Shown piece after piece: positions 10,403 through 34,664 of a stretch of 64,000 nt of DNA. This stretch comes from Elusimicrobia bacterium UBA5214 (lineage in GTDB: Bacteria; Elusimicrobiota; UBA5214): contig DHVG01000002.1 of the NCBI GenBank assembly GCA_002412545.1, positions 130,095 through 194,094 of the forward strand, given 5' to 3'. The notes below the pieces were generated by a model that saw only the letters and a program-made list of their open reading frames with translations, was not told where the DNA came from and did no database searches. A program made the position numbers and the translations under genes. Position 1 is the first letter of the stretch. Every line of letters starts with the position of its first letter.

Positions 10403-10608
10403 TTTGCCCCGTTAGAAATTCTGATAAATTAAGCTCAGTGCGAAGAAGTCTCGGCAATATCAAAATGCTCACGAAATTTCTAACGGGGTTTGCAAGAAAC
10501 AACTTGTTCTATTACCTCCCACCGCTAAAGCGGGATCTCCGAGAAGTCAACAAAATTTTTTAGAAAGCCCCTTTGACCCGTAAAATAAAAAATTTTTTTC
10601 TACAGGTC

Positions 10609-16930: not shown

Positions 16931-17060
16931 GGAAACGATAAGGGCAAACTCCTCCCCCGTTGTAACTTTGGGGGATCTCGATGGTTTACCTTCGGGAGAG
17001 AAATCGGAGGACGCAAAGCTACGGGGCTAAATCCACTGTCTGTGGATAAGTTGGCCGGGC
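16931..17060 (+). ncRNA. Putative cyclic-di-GMP-I (GEMM) riboswitch aptamer in the pilT leader
   Basis: AAGGGCAAAC...GGACGCAAAGCUACGGGGCUAAA matches the conserved GGGCAAAC / GGACGCAAAGCC...GGCCUAAA blocks of GEMM-I (Vc2-like). A candidate terminator/expression-platform hairpin sits at 17104-17170 (gccgagttacc...ggtaactcggc + tttt). Confidence 0.55.
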
Positions 17061-17197
17061 TGCCGAAAAGATTTAGGTATCATTCATTTGGCAGTGGATA
17101 TGCTCGCCGAGTTACCGAAAAAACGATAAAAAGTAAAACAAAATTTGAATAAGGTAACTCGGCTTTTATTTTGAGGGGAGAGGAGGAGTAATTAAGA

Positions 17198-18319
17198 ATG
17201 AAAATTGATGATTTATTGCGTTTGATGGTTTCAAACCGTGCTTCAGATTTGCATTTGAAAGCCGACACTCGTCCTTTATTGAGGATAGACGGAGAACTGA
17301 TTCCCGAGGATAAATTACCTGAATTTTCCAGTGCAGAAATCTGGGAACTGGTTTGCCAGATGATTGGCGAAGAGCAAAAAGATAAATTCACTCAGGAAAA
17401 AGAATTAGATTTTGCCTATAATCTATCCGGTTTAGCAAGATTTCGTGTAAACACCTATCTACAAAGAGGACAAATTGGTGTTTCAATAAGGGCGATTCCC
17501 TGGGATATTCCTACCTTAGATAAATTGGGATTTCCACCAGTGATTAAGGAGTTAGCTCTTAAACCGAGAGGTTTGGTCTTGGTCACCGGTCCGACGGGAA
17601 GCGGAAAATCAACAACTCTCGCGGCAATCATCAATTATATCAATGTTAATCGGCGTTGTCAGATAATTACTATTGAAGACCCGATTGAGTTTGTGCATAA
17701 AAATAAATTGAGTAATATTGACCAGCGCGAGTTAGGTAGTGACACTCTCTCCTTTGCTAATGCTTTGAAACATGTCCTCCGACAAGACCCGGATGTAATT
17801 TTAGTTGGTGAAATGCGCGACTTGGAAACAATCGCTTTAGCGATTACTGCTGCGGAAACCGGGCATCTAGTTTTTTCTACTTTGCATACTACGGGTGCGG
17901 CAGCAACCATTGACCGGATTATTGATGTTTTCCCACCAACTCAACAATCTCAGGTAAGGTTGCAAATTGCTACACTCTTGGAGGGGGTAATCTCTCAGAT
18001 TCTTTTACCCTGTGCGGATAGTAAAGGAAGAGTTGCTGCTTTAGAGATTATGATTTCTACTCCGGCGATTCGCAATCTTATCCGGGAGAATAAAGTTTTT
18101 CAGATTTCTTCGGTGATGCAAACCGGTGTTTCTTCAGGAATGCAGACACTTGACCTTGCTTTGAAGAAACTATGTGAAGAAAAACTGATTACTTACGAAG
18201 AAGCATTAACTAAGTGCAGCGAGCCGGAACAGTTTCAAAAAATGCACTCTGCGGGTAAATTCAGAGAGACCAAATTTAGTTCCCCAGCACCAATTTCTGG
18301 CAATGTCGTTCCTGCATAA
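17198..18319 (+). CDS. pilT: Type IV pilus retraction ATPase PilT
   Basis: Walker A GPTGSGKST, ITIEDPIEF, the Asp box and GMQT..L are PilT/PilU family motifs. Confidence 0.85.
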   Translation: MKIDDLLRLMVSNRASDLHLKADTRPLLRIDGELIPEDKLPEFSSAEIWELVCQMIGEEQKDKFTQEKELDFAYNLSGLARFRVNTYLQRGQIGVSIRAIPWDIPTLDKLGFPPVIKELALKPRGLVLVTGPTGSGKSTTLAAIINYINVNRRCQIITIEDPIEFVHKNKLSNIDQRELGSDTLSFANALKHVLRQDPDVILVGEMRDLETIALAITAAETGHLVFSTLHTTGAAATIDRIIDVFPPTQQSQVRLQIATLLEGVISQILLPCADSKGRVAALEIMISTPAIRNLIRENKVFQISSVMQTGVSSGMQTLDLALKKLCEEKLITYEEALTKCSEPEQFQKMHSAGKFRETKFSSPAPISGNVVPA

Positions 18320-27093: not shown

Positions 27094-28377
27094 TTATTCT
27101 CTTATCTGTCCTTTTCCAAAAACAATATATTTGGTTGAAGTAAGTTCATTAAGACCCATCGTCCCCCGGGCATGTAATTTTTGGGTAGAGATACCAATTT
27201 CCGAGCCAAACCCGAAGACACCACCGTCATGCAGACGGGTAGAAGCATTGTGAAATACCGCACTCGAGTCAACTTCCTGCAAAAATTTTTTTGCGGTTTC
27301 TTTATTTTCGGTAACGATTGTTTCACTATGTCCGGAACCATACTTATTGATATGCTCAATTGCTTCCTCTACCGAATCAACAATTTTTATTGCTAAAATC
27401 AAAGTGAGATATTCTCGATACCAATCGTCCTCAGTGGCTGGTTTAACCTCAGGAATAATTTGTTGTGTCCTTGTGCAACCACGGAGTTCTACGCCGGCTT
27501 TTTTATATTCCTCAATCATTAAGGGTAAGAATTTTTTGGCAATTTCTTGATGCACAAGTAATTTCTCCATTGCATTGCATACACCCGGACGCTGAACCTT
27601 AGCATTATAACAGATTTTAATTGCCATCTCTATATTTGCTTCCTTATCTACATAAGTGTGACAGTTACCTTTACCATGAGCAAGAACCGGGACGGTCGCT
27701 TTCTCCCGAATTGCCCGAATCATTTCTTCACCACCACGGGGAATGACTAAATCAATATACTGGTCTAATTTAATTAACTCAGAAATTGCCTCCCGTTCAG
27801 TAGTTTCAATGAACTCAATACTTCCATCTGGAATACCATTTGCATAAGCAGTTTGTCCAATAATTTTTGCTAAGATTGTATTTGTCTTGATTGCTTCCGA
27901 ACCACCACGCAAAATTACCGCATTACCCGATTTCAAACATAGACCACTCGCTTCTATGGTAACATTGGGGCGGGATTCGTAAATCATTAAAATTACACCC
28001 AGCGGGACCGATACTTTCTGGATTTTTAATCCATTCGGTTCGGTTTTGTTTACCTTGAGCCCGCCGAAAGGTCTAGTCCATTCAGCAATAATTTTACCTA
28101 CCGGGTCAGACAAATCAACAATTTCTTTTAGCCCCTTTACCATTTCACTAATTCTTTTTTCATTTAAAGTAAGACGGTCAATCAGTGCTGAAGAAAGATT
28201 TACCTTTTTAGCATTATTCAAATCAACTTGGTTAGCAGAGAGAATTTTTGTTTTTTCTTTCTTTAAAGCATCCGCTATTGCTAAAAGTGCCTTGTTCTTT
28301 ATTTCAGTACTTAAATTTGCTAATTTCCGACAAGCACTTTTTGCCCTTTCTGCTTTTTTAATCAGTTCTTCTTTCAT
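27094..28377 (-). CDS. proA: Gamma-glutamyl phosphate reductase
   Basis: Aldehyde dehydrogenase fold with Cys in ...GQ.CNA.E..LVH motif; ...IPRGG...I and GHSE.I.T. Confidence 0.9.
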   Translation of the reverse strand: MKEELIKKAERAKSACRKLANLSTEIKNKALLAIADALKKEKTKILSANQVDLNNAKKVNLSSALIDRLTLNEKRISEMVKGLKEIVDLSDPVGKIIAEWTRPFGGLKVNKTEPNGLKIQKVSVPLGVILMIYESRPNVTIEASGLCLKSGNAVILRGGSEAIKTNTILAKIIGQTAYANGIPDGSIEFIETTEREAISELIKLDQYIDLVIPRGGEEMIRAIREKATVPVLAHGKGNCHTYVDKEANIEMAIKICYNAKVQRPGVCNAMEKLLVHQEIAKKFLPLMIEEYKKAGVELRGCTRTQQIIPEVKPATEDDWYREYLTLILAIKIVDSVEEAIEHINKYGSGHSETIVTENKETAKKFLQEVDSSAVFHNASTRLHDGGVFGFGSEIGISTQKLHARGTMGLNELTSTKYIVFGKGQIRE

Positions 28378-28508
28378 TTTTCTCCTCTATCCGAAAACCA
28401 ATTTGACGCTGAAATTGTTACTTCTTTTTCGTTTAAGGTCACAACTTATGACCTTATATCCAGGAATAAAAAATTGTTTTCTTTTTAATTATCTCTGTGC
28501 TGATTTTA

Positions 28509-29063
28509 TCAATCTACACGAAAACCTATTTTCTTTTCAGGTTGCTTCGGTGGTGCCAGTAATTTATTTATAAGTTCAAAGACGACTTTAAATTGACGGT
28601 CATATTTCTTTTCCATTTCTTCAATTTTTCTTTTCAAATCTTCGTGTGTTGATAATATCCGTCTCAATTTTGCAAAAGTTCTCATAATCTGGATGTTCAC
28701 ATAGATAGCTCTTTTGCTATTTAATACACTGGAAAGCATAGCCACACCCTGCTCAGTAAAGGCGTAAGGGAGATATCCTCCTAAACTCCTTTTTGATGGT
28801 ATCACATTTTGTGATACCAAGATTTCTGCTTCTTCCTTAGTAAGTTTTAACATAAAGTCTTCCGGAAAACGGTCTTTATTTCTTTTTACCTGTTGTCTTA
28901 GAGCGATAGGTTTTACTCCGTAGAGTTCTGCAATGTGCCGGTCTAAAATTACATTTAATCCTTTTATTAAAAAGATTTTATTTTCTATTCTTTCTTGTGG
29001 AACTATTTCTTGAATTGTGCTTTCATCTTTTTTCATTTTTTTCACCTGACAATGGTTCGGCAT
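28509..29063 (-). CDS. ORF6N-domain protein (KilA-N/Bro-N-related, antirepressor-like)
   Basis: IRGQ-like ...ILDRHIAELYGV...LRQQVKRNKDRFPEDFMLKLTKEE...GGY.PYAFTEQGVAMLSSVL.S.RAI.VNIQIMRTF matches the ORF6N consensus almost residue-for-residue. Confidence 0.75.
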   Translation of the reverse strand: MPNHCQVKKMKKDESTIQEIVPQERIENKIFLIKGLNVILDRHIAELYGVKPIALRQQVKRNKDRFPEDFMLKLTKEEAEILVSQNVIPSKRSLGGYLPYAFTEQGVAMLSSVLNSKRAIYVNIQIMRTFAKLRRILSTHEDLKRKIEEMEKKYDRQFKVVFELINKLLAPPKQPEKKIGFRVD

Positions 29064-29263
29064 TGCTCACCACGGTAAAGGGATTGAACCGTTTTTTAAT
29101 TCCTCCGTCCCAATTCTCCCTGTTCAATGTTTATTCCGTAAAGCGTAGAAGCGTAGCCGGCCCTTAAGGGTCGGCTACCTCTTTTCCGTCACAGTTGTCA
29201 AGTAGCGTCCCCTTTTCGTTAATTCCCTCTGTCCCAATTTCCTATTTTTTGATAGTCTAAAAG

Positions 29264-29791
29264 TCATTCCAATTGTTCATATTTATCTGTCCATTCCATG
29301 GGTACGGGCGGCATTTTTGCTTGTTTGTCTATAACATCAATAACTTTTTCCGTATCCTCCACAAAATTTCTAGCATTGTCTAGAGTACATAATTTTTCCC
29401 ATCTTGTTAAAGGTGAATTCTCAGAAGTGCTTTCTATTTCTTCAGTTCTCGAGTGTACTAATTTGTTTCTCAGTTTAAATATCAAATCGAATGATTGGAA
29501 TGGTCGCTTACTGTTGTCAACTTGAAAATGTAATTTTTCACAGATAATTTTAAGTTTTGCTTTTGGAGACAATGACCTCTCTAAGTCAGCCCAACATTTG
29601 AAATTTAGATTGCCTAAATGATTCAAATAACTTTCTAATGTAAAAGCACAAAAAAGACAAGTAGCCATAATTTTATATGTTTGCCCGGCCATATCATTTG
29701 ACAATTCCAAAAAATGTTTTGACGCTGTTAATAACCATTTGTATGTATAAATAATTCTGCTGGTTCTACAAGTTCTTTTCATTATCTCCAT
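29264..29791 (-). CDS. Hypothetical protein with a HEPN-like Rx4H motif (candidate Abi/toxin RNase)
   Basis: FKLRNKLVHSRTEE contains R-N-x3-H at about aa 105 of 175. The gene is AT-rich, sits in the island and is followed by a small TM gene. Confidence 0.3.
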   Translation of the reverse strand: MEIMKRTCRTSRIIYTYKWLLTASKHFLELSNDMAGQTYKIMATCLFCAFTLESYLNHLGNLNFKCWADLERSLSPKAKLKIICEKLHFQVDNSKRPFQSFDLIFKLRNKLVHSRTEEIESTSENSPLTRWEKLCTLDNARNFVEDTEKVIDVIDKQAKMPPVPMEWTDKYEQLE

Positions 29792-29841
29792 AGTTTTCCC
29801 CTAAAATCATTTTTTCTACTTCTTGTTTGCTTGACAATTTT

Positions 29842-30057
29842 TTAATTCCCTCTGATCTGTAATATTTGGATTATAATAAAAATAATTTGGATAATACCAA
29901 GAAAAATCATGGCTCCTGATAAATAACTGCTTTTACAATTGAATTTATCTATTGATTCTCGTAAGCGTATAATTAATTCTGCTAAAGATTTTTGACTTTG
30001 TTCTAAACTTCCCCATGTAGTTCCTTTAATTATTTTACTATCACTTTCATTGTTCAT
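29842..30057 (-). CDS. Small single-pass membrane protein, hypothetical
   Basis: RBS gggagggg upstream and a C-terminal hydrophobic helix AMIFLGIIQIIFIIIQILQI. It starts 51 nt downstream of the HEPN-like gene. Confidence 0.35.
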   Translation of the reverse strand: MNNESDSKIIKGTTWGSLEQSQKSLAELIIRLRESIDKFNCKSSYLSGAMIFLGIIQIIFIIIQILQIRGN

Positions 30058-30225
30058 AGTTTACCCCTCCCGAAATTATATTTTCAACTTTTTGTTTAGC
30101 TTCGGATAAAAGTTCTTTTGTTTTTATGCGTGCTTCGTGTGATTGGCGAAAACTGGCAACAGAGTCAACAAGTGTCCTTTTTCCCGAAAAACTTGCTTAT
30201 AAATAGATATATATAACAATCCCAT

Positions 30226-30564
30226 TTATGAGTATCTTTCTTCTTGTCCAGTATGCAATTCAGGAGAATAAAGCTCGTATGTTGATAAATGGTGTTCATA
30301 CCTCACTAATTTTTCTTTTTCCAGTTGATACAATATATAGTCAAGTTCGTCAGTCGGTATATCCGAGAATGCCTGGGCTATCTCCTCACGAGAAAACACT
30401 CTGGTTCCCGGTACTTTTTGTTGTTCTTTCCTCAGCCAATTGAGAACGCTTAGTTTTCTTTTTTCCTTTCTTCCTACAAACCATTTCCATAATAACTTGT
30501 AAAGTAGATTGATAATTTTTCCTTTCACTTTTCTATTTTTCCACTTTCGGATAAATGCCGTCAA
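30226..30564 (-). CDS. Small basic hypothetical protein (possible wHTH regulator) overlapping the R-M gene start
   Basis: Lys/Arg-rich N-terminus and C-terminal SREEIAQAFSDIPTDELDYILYQLEKEKLV. It overlaps the start of 30533-33658 by 32 nt. Confidence 0.3.
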   Translation of the reverse strand: MTAFIRKWKNRKVKGKIINLLYKLLWKWFVGRKEKRKLSVLNWLRKEQQKVPGTRVFSREEIAQAFSDIPTDELDYILYQLEKEKLVRYEHHLSTYELYSPELHTGQEERYS

Positions 30565-33500
30565 TTAGTTTCTGGACTTCAATTGTCTTTTGAAGAGCGG
30601 TGACAATCTTGCAATAAGGTTTTATGTCGTTAAGTGTAGTTCCTATCTTGTCCTTCAGCCATTTATCACAAACTTGATAACCTCCGATTTGGTATTTCCA
30701 GATTTCTGGTTTTATGCCTTCAAAATATTGTTCATTATTTATATAAACTCGTCCTTTTTCATATTTTACTTTTTCAATTTTGTAATTTCCTTTACCTTGA
30801 AATTTAGCAACCGGTGGGTCGAGTTCCGCTGATTTAAGTAAATGTAAGTCAACCAGCCTTTTTCCATATTCAGCCATTTTACTGAAAAGTTTGTAATCTT
30901 TCGTTAAAGGAATTCTCGGGAAATCCATCTTTAGAAACTCGGCGTATCTTGTTCGGTAGATATTTGAGTAAAGAATAGCATAAACATAAAAGAAGATTTG
31001 TTCCGGAGACGGTATTTTTTTAAACTCTTTGGTTAATTGTTCGACTATTTCCGGAGAGAGGTTCGGTTTTTTTGCTCCGTAATCTGCTTGTGGTTCAAAG
31101 AGCATTATAACACTGCCTAAAGACCGTTTTTTAGGATTATCCTTTTTTTCTTGATATAGGTAAAGAGGGAAAAGGTAATTTATATCAAGGGCAGTAATAG
31201 ATGTTGCACCTGCAACAACTTTATCTGTAACAAAGGCATATCTCCAATCTTCTACACTTCTTGACCGTCTAATGGTAATTAAACCTAAATTTTCTCCTGC
31301 CAGCATATGGTACATAATTTCTGGACGGGGCATACAATGAAAACCACGGGATTTGCCGGTGTAATAGGTATATCTTATATCAAAAGGTCGGTATAAAATT
31401 GGTACTATTTTCTTTTTGTCTAATCCACTTTCTTCTAAATCCTTCTGAGCCAGTTCAACTTTCCAATCTCTTGCGTCTTTACCAAGGCTGTAAGCCTGCC
31501 TTGCCAATTCCGGATCAAGTTTTGAAAAGTTTAAAATAGTTTGCCAAACTTCTTCCGGTTTCCATTTGATAGTCAAATTGTCCCTCGCCGTAACTATCCC
31601 TACACTGTTAGCAAGAAAGATGTCAGTTATCTTTGGATATGAGTAGTATAACTTGAAAAGTTTTCTTTCCGTTGGAATAAAACGATAAAAAAACTCCGAT
31701 TTTAGTGATATTTTTTGCCATTTAGTTGTTTTTATATCATTTTTCAAAAGCCAATCATACTTTTTTTCCTGCAATCCCCAAAGGTCTGAATGATGAACTT
31801 CGCACTCTCTCTTTTCATCTTTCTTTTTTATGAAAAGGGCAATCGCTACTCCCTGTCGAATATCAAAGACATTTCCATCTTTAGACCCGTCAGGACATTT
31901 CCCTTTTTCTTTCGTAATATTGCCATGCAAATCTAAAATATAAATTTCATTGAAACTATTCATCAGGGATTGTCGCATTCCTCTAAAAGTTGGATTATCC
32001 AGATAACTATGATTGGTAATAAATCCTAAAATTCCTTCACCTGCTTGGTCAATTTTCCACTGGGCAAAACGAATGAATTTTACATAATCATCTTGTAGCC
32101 ATTTAGGATTTTTTTCGCCAAGCGGTTTACCATCCACCTGATAGTAAACTTTAATTTCTTTTGAAATCCATTCACCTACATTATAGGAATGTCCCGAATA
32201 AGGCGGATTGCCAAAAATAACTAAAATTGGTGTTTCCTTTTTTACCTTGCCTGCCAAATGAGATTCCTCAGAAAGGGAAACCATACCCGGAAGTTCGGTC
32301 TGGGCGAGTTCTTCCATTTCCAAAGTATTGGTTAGATAGAGTTTAAACCGGTCGTCATCCTTGAGTTCGTAGCCGAGTTCTTCTAAGAGAAAAGACATTT
32401 TGAGGTGTCCTACTGCGTAAGGTGCCATCATCAATTCAAAAGCATAAAAATTTTTGAGGATATGTTCTCTGATAAGATTTTCTTTTCCACCTTCTCCATA
32501 TTTGTGAACAAATTCATTTACTACTAATTTAGATGCTTCTGCTAAAAAAGTAAGTGTTCCTGCCGCAGGGTCCAAAACGGTAACTAATTCGCTTGCAAAT
32601 CCATCCTTTCTATTAAAATGTTCCTTCAAAATACGATGCAAAGAACGAACGATATAAGATACGACGGGTTCTGGTGTGTAATATACGCCCCTCTTTTCTC
32701 TTGTTTGTGGGTCATATTCAGCCAAGAAGGTTTCATAAAAGTGGACAATTGGGTCTTTACCTTTGCCTTCATGAAAATATTTGTGAAGGATATTTTTTAC
32801 ATCAGTAACTGCTAATACTTCTGAAATATCATCAATAATCCATTCCATTTGTTGGGAAGGTTTACCCAGTGAAATAAAATGAAAAACATCCCTTAGAATA
32901 CCTATAGTTGGTGGAATCTTATCGTAGGCAAGTTTTCTATTAAACTCGTTTTCTGAACGAGTTCGGGCAGCAAAAAGTCCGTAGGTAATGGTTTGGGAAT
33001 AAAGGTCAGCAAAATCCTCTTTTGTAAGACCACTTATTAGATATTTTCTGAATGCTTCATAAAATCCTAAAATAAATCCTTTTCCTATTTCTTCTTCTTC
33101 TTTTAGTTCTTGGGCAACGACTTCGTCTCTAAGGAAACGTGTCCTATTTGCTAATTCAATTGCTAGTGTTTTAGCATCATAAACCTTTGGCAAAGAAAAA
33201 GAAAAGAATTTCTCAAGCAGTTTAACAAAATCCTGTTCTTTTTCAACAGGTGGCACTGTTTTAAGTTTATGAACAATAAAGGGTCTACCAATAAGAACTT
33301 TATCTATTAAAGTACCGTTGTGATAACGTCTGAATTCAAAAAAGTTAGTTAATATAAGATTGGGGAAGGTATGCCGATAGCGTTTTAACTGTTCCGTTTC
33401 TTCTGTCTGGTCTAAATCCTCGTTCTTTGGTTCCTTGGCTTCAATATACCCAACGATATGCTGACTTCCATCCCAGACCCTGAAGTCAGGATTACCGGCT

Positions 33501-33658
33501 TCAGTTTTCTTTGGTAGAGTGGTAATATGGATATTTTTTTTGCCGACCGATTCTATATATTCCTGTAGTAATCCTTCAAGGATTGAGTAGTAACTCTCTT
33601 CCCTTGCGTCTCCATGTTGGGCAACTCCAAAGATTTTTTCTAAATATGCTTTCAACAT
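30533..33658 (-). CDS. MmeI-like Type IIL/IIG restriction-modification enzyme: N-terminal PD-(D/E)xK nuclease, N6-adenine MTase and a C-terminal TRD
   Basis: DFRVWDGSQHIVGYIEAKEP is a D-x13-EAK nuclease motif at the N-terminus. MTase motif I is VLDPAAGTLTFL and motif IV is IFGNPPYSG (NPPY). Total length is 1041 aa. Confidence 0.75.
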   Translation of the reverse strand: MLKAYLEKIFGVAQHGDAREESYYSILEGLLQEYIESVGKKNIHITTLPKKTEAGNPDFRVWDGSQHIVGYIEAKEPKNEDLDQTEETEQLKRYRHTFPNLILTNFFEFRRYHNGTLIDKVLIGRPFIVHKLKTVPPVEKEQDFVKLLEKFFSFSLPKVYDAKTLAIELANRTRFLRDEVVAQELKEEEEIGKGFILGFYEAFRKYLISGLTKEDFADLYSQTITYGLFAARTRSENEFNRKLAYDKIPPTIGILRDVFHFISLGKPSQQMEWIIDDISEVLAVTDVKNILHKYFHEGKGKDPIVHFYETFLAEYDPQTREKRGVYYTPEPVVSYIVRSLHRILKEHFNRKDGFASELVTVLDPAAGTLTFLAEASKLVVNEFVHKYGEGGKENLIREHILKNFYAFELMMAPYAVGHLKMSFLLEELGYELKDDDRFKLYLTNTLEMEELAQTELPGMVSLSEESHLAGKVKKETPILVIFGNPPYSGHSYNVGEWISKEIKVYYQVDGKPLGEKNPKWLQDDYVKFIRFAQWKIDQAGEGILGFITNHSYLDNPTFRGMRQSLMNSFNEIYILDLHGNITKEKGKCPDGSKDGNVFDIRQGVAIALFIKKKDEKRECEVHHSDLWGLQEKKYDWLLKNDIKTTKWQKISLKSEFFYRFIPTERKLFKLYYSYPKITDIFLANSVGIVTARDNLTIKWKPEEVWQTILNFSKLDPELARQAYSLGKDARDWKVELAQKDLEESGLDKKKIVPILYRPFDIRYTYYTGKSRGFHCMPRPEIMYHMLAGENLGLITIRRSRSVEDWRYAFVTDKVVAGATSITALDINYLFPLYLYQEKKDNPKKRSLGSVIMLFEPQADYGAKKPNLSPEIVEQLTKEFKKIPSPEQIFFYVYAILYSNIYRTRYAEFLKMDFPRIPLTKDYKLFSKMAEYGKRLVDLHLLKSAELDPPVAKFQGKGNYKIEKVKYEKGRVYINNEQYFEGIKPEIWKYQIGGYQVCDKWLKDKIGTTLNDIKPYCKIVTALQKTIEVQKLIDGIYPKVEK

Positions 33659-33668
33659 TTTATTCTTT

Positions 33669-34664
33669 TCAATGTTTAGTTTTCTTTTTTTCCCTCTCTC
33701 TTAAACACATCTCAGCAGCGAGTTTAACTGCGGAGAACATCGGGCGTGCGTCAGCGAGATTTTTACCGGCAATGTCAAAAGCAGTGCCGTGTCCGGGTGA
33801 AGTGCGAATGAAGGGCAAACCAAGGGTAACATTGACTAAAGAATAAGGGTCAAGCAGTTTTAGAGGTATCATTGCCTGGTCGTGATACATTACAATAATT
33901 AAATCATATTTTTTCCACCACTGGAAAACCGTATCTGCCGGTAAAGGACCTGTAACTTGCAACTTGTAACCTGTAACTTGTTTGATTGCCGGGATGATTA
34001 TCTCTTTTTCTTCCTTACCGAGAACTCCGCCTTCGCCGCGGTGCGGATTTAAGGCACAAACCGCAATTCTTAGTTTAGCAATAGAGAAATATTTTTCTAA
34101 TGCTTTGGCTCCAAGTTTAATTGCCAAAATAATTTTTTCTTTAGTTAAACTATTAGCGACATCTTTTAAAGGTAAATGCCGGGTAACCATTGCTACTTTA
34201 AGTTTTTTGTTCACCATCAGCATAAGCAAATTCTTTTTCCCGGTTAATTCAGCAAGGATTTCGGTATGTCCGGAATAATTCAATCCGGCACGGTTTAATG
34301 CTTCTTTAGATATCGGTGCAGTAACCAAACCGTCCACCTGTCCATTCTGCACCAATTCTACTGCTTTTTTGATATATTCATAACTTAATTGTCCATACTC
34401 AGAGTTAGTCATACCGAAGTTTAGTTTCCTAATCTTGCCGATATTGATTAATTCAAATTCTCTATTGGAAACGACTGGAGGGTATTTTTTAAGATAAAAG
34501 TCTAAAACTGATTTTGTACCGATAACTACCGGTTGGCAAATTTGGTAAACTTCTTTCTTGGCAAGTGTTTTGATGACTATTTCCGGACCGATACCTGCAG
34601 GGTCACCGATTGTGATTGCAAGAGACGGCTTTTTACTCAATTTCGCTAATTTTGATTGTAGCAT
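33669..34664 (-). CDS. pdxA: 4-hydroxythreonine-4-phosphate dehydrogenase
   Basis: ITIGDPAGIGPEIV, HTE, NPHRGEGG and SPGHGTAFDIAGK are PdxA signatures. It contains an in-frame repeat (33949-33980). Confidence 0.85.
   Translation of the reverse strand: MLQSKLAKLSKKPSLAITIGDPAGIGPEIVIKTLAKKEVYQICQPVVIGTKSVLDFYLKKYPPVVSNREFELINIGKIRKLNFGMTNSEYGQLSYEYIKKAVELVQNGQVDGLVTAPISKEALNRAGLNYSGHTEILAELTGKKNLLMLMVNKKLKVAMVTRHLPLKDVANSLTKEKIILAIKLGAKALEKYFSIAKLRIAVCALNPHRGEGGVLGKEEKEIIIPAIKQVTGYKLQVTGPLPADTVFQWWKKYDLIIVMYHDQAMIPLKLLDPYSLVNVTLGLPFIRTSPGHGTAFDIAGKNLADARPMFSAVKLAAEMCLREREKKKTKH

Follow-up and report, generated by a model that had tools for sequence, protein, structure and literature searches.

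The stretch analysed here is a 64-kb window of contig DHVG01000002.1 from the uncultured Elusimicrobia bacterium UBA5214, in which an interval between the housekeeping genes proA and pdxA (positions 28509-33658, hereafter the island) had been singled out by a first-pass annotation as a candidate defence island. Five co-oriented open reading frames (ORFs) occupy the minus strand of this interval. In the direction of transcription these encode a restriction-modification (R-M) enzyme of 1041 amino acids (aa) (30533-33658; Pfam and PADLOC matches and a reading of its motifs), a basic protein of 100 aa (30226-30528), whose GTG start codon lies 4 nt past the stop codon of the R-M gene, a 71-aa membrane protein (29842-30057) with one C-terminal transmembrane segment, a 175-aa HEPN protein (29264-29791), recognised from its AlphaFold2 (AF2) fold and its Rx4H motif, and a 184-aa ORF6N (KilA-N-like) protein (28509-29063), matched by the Pfam ORF6N model and by the PADLOC family PDC-S05. 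The flanking genes, also on the minus strand, are true proA (27094-28377; NCBIfam NF001221, 601 bits against a cut-off of 289) and pdxA (33669-34664; NCBIfam TIGR00557, 352 bits against 290; Pfam PdxA, E-value 1.7e-98), both passing the equivalog cut-offs, and the first-pass layout of five minus-strand ORFs between them is thus confirmed. Outward of proA lies nadD, and outward of pdxA a SurA-like gene and mfd. The identical sequence is also present in contig Ga0134309_00002 of Joint Genome Institute (JGI) dataset 3300038308, in GCA_003530275.1 and in two Logan assemblies. With modest confidence, we read the proA-pdxA interval as an accessory cluster of independent units, namely a Type IIL R-M enzyme, a solo HEPN ribonuclease (RNase) serving as an abortive-infection-like (Abi-like) back-up, an ORF6N gene and two orphans.

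Domain composition and motifs indicate that the 1041-aa product is an intact single-chain R-M enzyme of Type IIG/IIL. It matches the Pfam families Type_ISP_C (3.6e-86) and N6_Mtase (4.9e-10) and the PADLOC family REase_MTase_IIG (2.1e-256), models of which cover residues 13-693, taking in the N-terminal nuclease, and residues 511-1032; together the Pfam and PADLOC matches show that a single chain carries the nuclease, the methyltransferase and the recognition domain. Reading of the translation locates the nuclease motif PD58...E73-A-K75 (NPDF56-59 and EAK73-75; 33434-33493, minus strand), the methyltransferase motif I as DPAAG363-367, and the catalytic motif IV as NPPY484-487 (32198-32209, minus strand). 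A comparable organisation is known for the founding member of the family, MmeI, a single protein in which an endonuclease at the N-terminus is followed by a methyltransferase in the centre and a recognition domain at the C-terminus, and which modifies only one strand (PMC2582602). Like MmeI and DrdV, of Type IIL/IIG, the enzyme is one chain of about 1000 aa with an N-terminal PD-ExK nuclease, a gamma-class N6-adenine methyltransferase of the NPPY type and a C-terminal recognition domain, and it has no separate methyltransferase or S subunit. The earlier designation of the enzyme as MmeI-like consequently holds for the architecture and less so for the sequence, as matches to the Pfam models specific for MmeI are marginal (MmeI_Mtase, 0.0012, under the threshold) and the recognition domain differs from that of MmeI in being of the Type_ISP_C kind, common to LlaGI and LlaBIII. 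The nearest solved chain is that of DrdV (7lo5; 3.2e-44), with similarity limited to residues 306-943, followed by LlaBIII and LlaGI.

The latter two represent Type ISP, with which the enzyme shares homologous methyltransferase and recognition domains (~5e-44), and indeed NCBI labels its plasmid homologues 'type ISP restriction/modification enzyme'. However, the solved LlaGI and LlaBIII chains measure 1406 and 1578 aa, versus 1041 aa here, and the helicase-like ATPase motor of about 500 aa that defines Type ISP is missing, no helicase or ATPase domain being matched in the enzyme by Pfam. Since it lacks this motor, the protein is assigned to Type IIG/IIL rather than to Type ISP. By analogy with MmeI and DrdV, the enzyme would act alone: its recognition domain would bind an asymmetric site, its methyltransferase would mark one strand of the host sites with N6-methyladenine (m6A), and its N-terminal PD-ExK nuclease would cut unmodified incoming DNA at a distance. 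Full-length homologues with 35-37% identity are carried by plasmids of different phyla (143 records), those of Acinetobacter, Borrelia and Haloferax among them. A conserved small partner was considered and ruled out, no conserved partner gene adjoining two plasmid homologues whose neighbourhoods, including the downstream side, were inspected. The R-M gene has the appearance of typical, self-sufficient mobile defence cargo. The first-pass proposal that the ORF6N protein and the HEPN-like/transmembrane pair are not R-M components is likewise sustained alongside this bona fide enzyme, and a description of the interval as an R-M enzyme plus genes outside the R-M system is supported.

The 175-aa protein, for which the first-pass annotation had pointed to a HEPN-like RNKLVH motif, is on the basis of its predicted fold a HEPN protein. 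Taken alone, it only grazes the Pfam HEPN models, the best being RiboL-PSP (PF18735; E 0.022, 15.1 bits against a cut-off of 28.4), and it falls under the threshold of every one of them. An exhaustive HMMER search nevertheless retrieved 989 representative clusters at E<=0.001, 481 of them at E<=1e-10, nearly all made up of proteins that stand alone and measure 170-220 aa. Across 124 aligned family members, W67 and H113 are invariant, and A49, E53, N57, G60, K79, L80, P97, Q99, R108 and W131 are conserved in at least 90%. When these 124 members were scanned individually, they matched HEPN models of Pfam only: HEPN_RiboL-PSP in 17 cases (counted at E<=0.01; best 1.7e-7), HEPN_MAE_28990 in 11, Cthe_2314 in 3 and HepT-like in 2. 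Structure prediction with the family alignment gave a HEPN fold rather than an unrelated one, with a predicted local distance difference test (pLDDT) score of 95.8 and a predicted template-modelling (pTM) score of 0.89. The model comprises helices 16-30, 37-63, 98-112 and 137-158, an insert (64-97) between helices 2 and 3, and additional N- and C-terminal β-strands. Foldseek searches of the PDB returned at the top 2hsb (the HEPN protein AF_0298, probability 1.00), the HepT toxins 7bxo, 5yep, 6m6u and 8xeh, and sacsin HEPN; the corresponding E-values are weak (0.05-1), and the target-normalised TM scores for HepT amount to 0.54-0.61. According to the published definition of the superfamily (PMC3710099), HEPN proteins are up-down bundles of four helices, in which an insert separates helices 2 and 3, the Rx4-6H motif, with a polar residue following its arginine, closes helix 3, and helix 2 contributes a conserved acidic residue. 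In the model, the motif R108-N-K-L-V-H113 (29453-29470, minus strand) lies at the C-terminal end of helix 3 (98-112), and the conserved acidic residue E53 falls within helix 2 (37-63). The conservation of R108 and H113, the AF2 model and the Foldseek matches all agree with the HEPN assignment, and the protein is predicted to be a metal-independent RNase.

We place this protein in the AbiD/AbiF/RiboL-PSP-like part of the superfamily, as a member of an undescribed family. The family appears to be unnamed, as no NCBIfam or PADLOC model captures it (5 of the 124 members graze RTasHEPN), and a search of solved structures with the family profile gave nothing significant. Its distribution is patchy, the nearest relative being only 43% identical and residing in unrelated contexts. 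The resemblance to HEPN proteins of the Abi type (AbiD/AbiF, RiboL-PSP-HEPN, MAE_28990) and to HEC-08 extends to the four-helix core, in which an insert follows helix 2, to the stand-alone gene, and to the occasional location of family members beside R-M or BREX loci. In contrast to the Abi-type proteins, the HEPN protein is not fused to an L-PSP, ParB, Zn-ribbon or other domain, nor does it have the ParB neighbour of HEPN_RiboL-PSP, and its extra terminal β-strands set it apart from HEC-08 as well. A direct link to DUF3644/HEC-08 was tried by aligning the family profile with a Legionella DUF3644 fragment in hhalign, and the outcome (probability 0.6%) was uninformative. HepT of the HepT-MntA system provides the best structural matches after AF_0298 (7bxo, 5yep, 6m6u) and has the same Rx4H chemistry, but HepT is shorter (about 130 versus 175 aa) and only 10-16% identical in sequence; moreover, no MNT nucleotidyltransferase gene adjoins the HEPN gene in the island, and no nucleotidyltransferase family recurs among the neighbours at 80 related loci. 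A phage origin of the family was also considered and is ruled against by the lack of members in IMG/VR, searched with two conserved peptide patterns, and in the INPHARED phage genomes, searched by tblastn, as well as by the fact that the viral fold matches amount to a single marginal one (E 0.0099).

The genes found beside HEPN relatives were analysed in the best 80 of 333 metagenome loci, in which ORFs were called and the neighbours within three genes were clustered. No conserved neighbour of the family emerged from these best 80 of 333 loci beyond near-identical contigs. The largest neighbour cluster consists of six luciferase-like monooxygenases, and the top Pfam families among the 111 neighbours within two genes are Bac_luciferase (5), Peptidase_S41 (3) and glycosyl- and methyltransferases. 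Several relatives are placed close to genes of known defence systems: BrxC lies 45 nt upstream of the relative in locus L075, HsdS 8 nt upstream in L043, and an SspH/mad8-like protein 7-8 nt upstream in L083/L053; a SIR2-APAZ-like protein is within 0-45 nt in L084, and the neighbours are an HSDR_N nuclease in L064, a type III methyltransferase in L074 and, in L032, a YxDD-motif protein which is probably the source of the retron/DRT-type reverse transcriptase (RT) matches.

Upstream of the HEPN gene in the island lies the 71-aa gene, and the first-pass annotation had regarded the two as a pair. Its reading of the 71-aa product as a protein with a single transmembrane segment agrees with the one strong hydrophobic segment at residues 48-66 (Kyte-Doolittle 19-residue mean 2.61), from whose position a tail-anchored topology is predicted. 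The gene is preceded by a strong Shine-Dalgarno sequence (GGGAGGGG) 6-7 nt before its ATG and has the lowest GC content among the genes of the window (26.4%, z -4.1). JGI calls this protein (P0159) 'FMN-dependent NADH-azoreductase', which is almost certainly a mis-annotation, because the protein lacks family matches and falls far short of the length of such an enzyme. The spacer preceding the gene contains an open stretch of about 48 codons without a start codon (30058-30210, minus strand, third frame; …FRQSHEARIKTKELLSEAKQKVENIISGGVN), which resembles what is left of the C-terminal end of a lost gene; an origin from HsdS was considered and set aside, as no Pfam match was obtained.

The HEPN protein and the 71-aa membrane protein could in principle form a two-gene abortive-infection or toxin module, in which the latter would serve, for example, as membrane sensor, anchor or antitoxin. 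Indeed, the two genes share their orientation and are separated by 50 nt that contain no terminator, their AT content is the highest in the island (26.4% and 32.2% GC), which suggests a joint arrival, and fusions and pairings of HEPN with transmembrane proteins are known elsewhere in the superfamily (Table 1 of PMC3710099). However, a search among 5.8 billion proteins found the 71-aa protein itself and no homologue, and at none of the 80 HEPN loci is the upstream protein related to it (best BLAST E ~1). Small ORFs with a transmembrane segment precede HEPN relatives at only about eight loci, where their architectures are unrelated and several are fragments, and on three long contigs with HEPN relatives the upstream place is taken by a gene for a trypsin-like, DUF4352 or Tricorn_N/PD40 protein. 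As both small proteins of the island are orphans, the pair is left without comparative support, and we consider such a module improbable. The case also indicates that small transmembrane orphans beside HEPN genes are not to be taken as partners unless comparison supports it.

At the proA end of the island, the 184-aa protein is borne out as an ORF6N/KilA-N protein by its match to Pfam PF10543 (ORF6N, 8.3e-31), which is followed by a C-terminal helical tail; the second ATG of the gene, at 29036, has the better ribosome-binding site. Search with hidden Markov models of defence systems further revealed a full-length match to the candidate defence family PDC-S05 (PDLC04856; 1.3e-54, residues 18-181 on model positions 4-175 of 177), whereas the best PHROG match is an anti-repressor (5.3e-24). 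No Virulence_RhuM or enzymatic domain was detected in the protein with Pfam. As it consists only of a DNA-binding domain and a helical tail, it cannot act as an enzymatic toxin itself. PDC families are computational candidates, defined by their embedding in BREX, DISARM or type I R-M loci (bioRxiv 10.1101/2024.01.29.577857), and one PDC-S05 representative, which carried a Virulence_RhuM domain, lowered the plating of T7 and T5 about 1000-fold. The likeness of the island gene to this family consists of the full-length model match and the proximity of an R-M gene; unlike the PDC-S05 genes it is not embedded, being three genes away from the R-M gene and behind a hairpin. An embedded homologue was found on the Treponema saccharophilum plasmid pTS1 (L098, NZ_AP025289.1 295437-305931), where an ORF6N protein of 298 aa is encoded between hsdM and hsdS. 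The complete order in this operon is hsdR, an ATP-binding protein, hsdM, a 90-aa winged-helix regulator, ORF6N, hsdS and Fic, then HNH and a P-loop NTPase; the co-occurrence of a winged-helix gene and ORF6N within a type I R-M operon echoes that of the possibly winged-helix 100-aa gene and ORF6N in the island. Judging from these sequence relationships, the ORF6N gene would be either a candidate defence gene of the PDC-S05 type or a regulator from a mobile element.

Between the ORF6N and HEPN genes there is a 200-bp spacer, which contains a GC-rich palindromic hairpin of 26 nt with an 11-bp stem (GTAGCCGGCCCTTAAGGGTCGGCTAC; 29153-29178). This is its sole copy in the window, and it probably marks the boundary of a transcription unit. 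Two independent short-read assemblies end at 29182-29189, beside the palindrome, and one contig has a gap of Ns; strain variation was considered for these breaks, which we read instead as assembly artefacts. A second feature of the region is a motif with the core ACAGAGGGAATTAA, present in four copies on the minus strand (28485-28498, 29095-29115, 29219-29239 and 29842-29855; overall span 28485-29855), three of which are located at or just past the stop codons of the ORF6N, HEPN and 71-aa genes and the fourth about 30 nt upstream of the ORF6N start. About one match would be expected per 64-kb window, yet all the observed copies fall within 1.4 kb and on one strand, the coding one. These copies could be cassette boundaries or an operator.

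The hairpin spacer and the motif both bear on the possibility that ORF6N and HEPN compose a toxin-antitoxin-like pair, with ORF6N as the antitoxin or repressor, and on the joint module suggested in the first-pass annotation. The adjacency and common orientation of the two genes, the recurrence of the short motif around both of them, as a possible operator, and a Legionella plasmid in which an ORF6N gene is two genes away from a DUF3644 (HEPN) gene are consistent with this arrangement. Nonetheless, the strong hairpin in the 200-bp spacer divides the two genes, no ORF6N homologue adjoins any of the 80 HEPN relatives, the HEPN family is absent from six of six ORF6N neighbourhoods, and the order, with the toxin first and a 200-bp gap, is atypical for a toxin-antitoxin pair. 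Altogether these observations make such a pair highly improbable, and the joint module is not upheld.

The last of the small products is basic as had been described (pI 9.1), but its length is more plausibly 100 than 112 aa: the longer version uses a TTG start at 30564 and overlaps the R-M gene, whereas the gene callers on two other assemblies give 100 aa from the GTG. Among 5.8 billion proteins only the self-match was retrieved. A single-sequence AF2 model (pLDDT 65.5) has a helix-strand-helix-helix-strand topology, and the Foldseek matches, weak as they are (E>1), are mostly winged-helix regulators; the protein is thus possibly a winged-helix DNA-binding protein, which we take from the model as a lead only. 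By sequence comparison, the 71-aa and 100-aa proteins appear as lineage-specific orphans with no demonstrable tie to their neighbours. A search for RNA partners in the same region also gave negative results: no Rfam family was matched in 28300-30700, no tandem arrays of the ToxI type were found, and the predicted folding of the two long spacers of the island is no more stable than that of shuffled sequence (z -0.10 and +1.20). An RNA antitoxin or structured RNA was rejected on these grounds.

The composition of the island was compared with that of its surroundings, taking the 46 other genes of the window as reference. The region had been described as markedly AT-rich, and this proved overstated, as its GC content of 35.0% is only 2-3 points below that of the 5-kb flanks (36.9% and 37.8%), the window having 37.6%. 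Three of the island genes fall within the spread of the reference genes (R-M, z -0.8; 100-aa, z -0.7; ORF6N, z -1.5), and the only outliers are the gene for the HEPN protein, at 32.2% GC (z -2.1), and the 71-aa ORF. The half with the small genes (28509-30532) has a GC content of 33.8% and looks younger than the R-M gene. In terms of tetranucleotide distance, the island ranks 4th of 59 windows. Comparison with relatives was confined to one locus retrieved in a PdxA scan (L009, PdxA 73% identical), whose contig ends 42 nt after pdxA and gives no proA-pdxA synteny, and look-ups of the exact ProA, ORF6N, 100-aa and HEPN proteins returned the same organism with the identical island only. The tetranucleotide rank, the two orphans, the R-M family common on plasmids and the patchy HEPN family count in favour of an island.

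In the reading of the interval as an accessory cluster, independent genes would be stacked beside an intact R-M enzyme, and would not compose one multi-gene system. The most likely role of the HEPN protein would then be that of an Abi-type second line of defence, inactive until infection; two subunits would build a composite Rx4H site, with which RNA of the host or the phage would be cleaved. What the model and the alignment establish is the fold and the motif, while RNase activity, dimerisation, triggering and a defensive role are inferred. What counts for this role are the canonical motif, the large size of the family and the recurrence of its members directly beside defence genes. Precedents exist: lactococcal Abi proteins have been recognised as HEPN proteins, and the attachment of HEPN/Abi-like genes to R-M operons is a theme set out in 2013 (PMC3710099). 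Furthermore, the single-gene HEPN defence HEC-08 loses protection when the histidine of its Rx4-6H motif is mutated (bioRxiv 10.1101/2024.01.29.577857).

A number of observations weigh against the accessory-cluster reading. Most neighbours of the HEPN family are housekeeping genes (luciferase-like monooxygenases, peptidases, glycosyltransferases), and a clear defence neighbour is present at only about 7 of 73 non-redundant loci (about 10%), a raw count that is suggestive of a defence link. A free-standing HEPN toxin with neither antitoxin nor sensor is mechanistically unexplained. As regards the ORF6N protein, it lacks the Virulence_RhuM domain of the tested PDC-S05 representative, and its closest annotated short-form homologue (Parabacteroides, 52.5% identity) is situated after the integrase of a conjugative transposon and before ardA; the Legionella homologue likewise follows an integrase, and that of Sulfuricurvum abuts a Tn3 transposase. 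At the level of the locus, the GC content and codon usage of the R-M gene are host-like, the window contains no tRNA, none of the five genes encodes an integrase, no convincing direct or att-like repeat borders the interval, and island status is not proven.

Several of these points are shared by an alternative in which the R-M enzyme alone is defensive, the HEPN protein takes part in accessory RNA processing or turnover, the ORF6N protein is a regulator from a decayed integrative element and the orphans are young or spurious. This alternative would account for the metabolic or housekeeping character of most HEPN-family neighbourhoods, for the failure to find the family in viral contigs and phage genomes or to match it to a PADLOC model, and for ORF6N homologues near integrases and transposases on plasmids and conjugative transposons, with an anti-repressor as best PHROG match and no enzymatic domain. 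On the other hand, it fits less well with HEPN relatives lying directly beside BREX, type I and III R-M, probable retron/DRT-type RT and SIR2-APAZ-like genes, with the patchy distribution and canonical active-site motif of the HEPN protein, or with an ORF6N protein that matches PDC-S05 over its full length and has a homologue embedded in a type I R-M operon. On balance, we regard it as rather unlikely.

Two further elements of the window lie outside the island. An 88-nt element at 10407-10494 is 94% identical to one at 1323-1410 of the relative L009, whereas the genes there are only 75-80% identical; in L009 it is found in other surroundings, directly upstream of mfd. Inverted repeats of about 16 bp, CCCCGTTAGAAATTTC and a nearly complementary counterpart, enclose a loop of some 50 nt. 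The element has no match in Rfam and does not correspond to a tRNA, and it may be an element resembling a miniature inverted-repeat transposable element (MITE) or a structured RNA of a new type. In addition, a cyclic-di-GMP-I riboswitch (RF01051; 59.8 bits, the gathering score being 35) is found at 16933-17067 on the plus strand, upstream of the ORF 17198-18319.

Viewed as a whole, the island in the accessory-cluster reading is a fresh instance of the well-known arrangement of R-M with HEPN/Abi-like genes, and as a phage-defence island it is fairly ordinary. Neither the R-M enzyme nor the ORF6N protein goes beyond the routine, and the value of the locus resides in the definition of a sizeable, unannotated HEPN family, which comes with a confident model, with E53, N57, R108 and H113 as predicted catalytic residues and with a list of defence-adjacent loci. 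For this family, of about 990 clusters at 50% identity that derive nearly all from environmental metagenomes, one may tentatively propose a role in single-gene abortive infection, with members settling opportunistically beside R-M, BREX, retron/DRT and SIR2-APAZ loci, in which the protein is kept silent with no protein antitoxin; we consider this wider proposal doubtful. No MNT gene, protein antitoxin candidate or repeat RNA that might restrain the HEPN protein was found at the locus, and silencing could be achieved, for example, by auto-inhibition through the extra terminal β-strands or by the need for a phage-made trigger. Loci L075, L043, L084 and L083 are good starting points for studying the family as a defence gene. 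If antitoxin-less single-gene RNase defence were true, the family would constitute a new entry for defence-finder databases and would raise the matter of how a solo HEPN protein stays harmless, and even then, as an addition to a crowded HEPN class, it would be an incremental advance.

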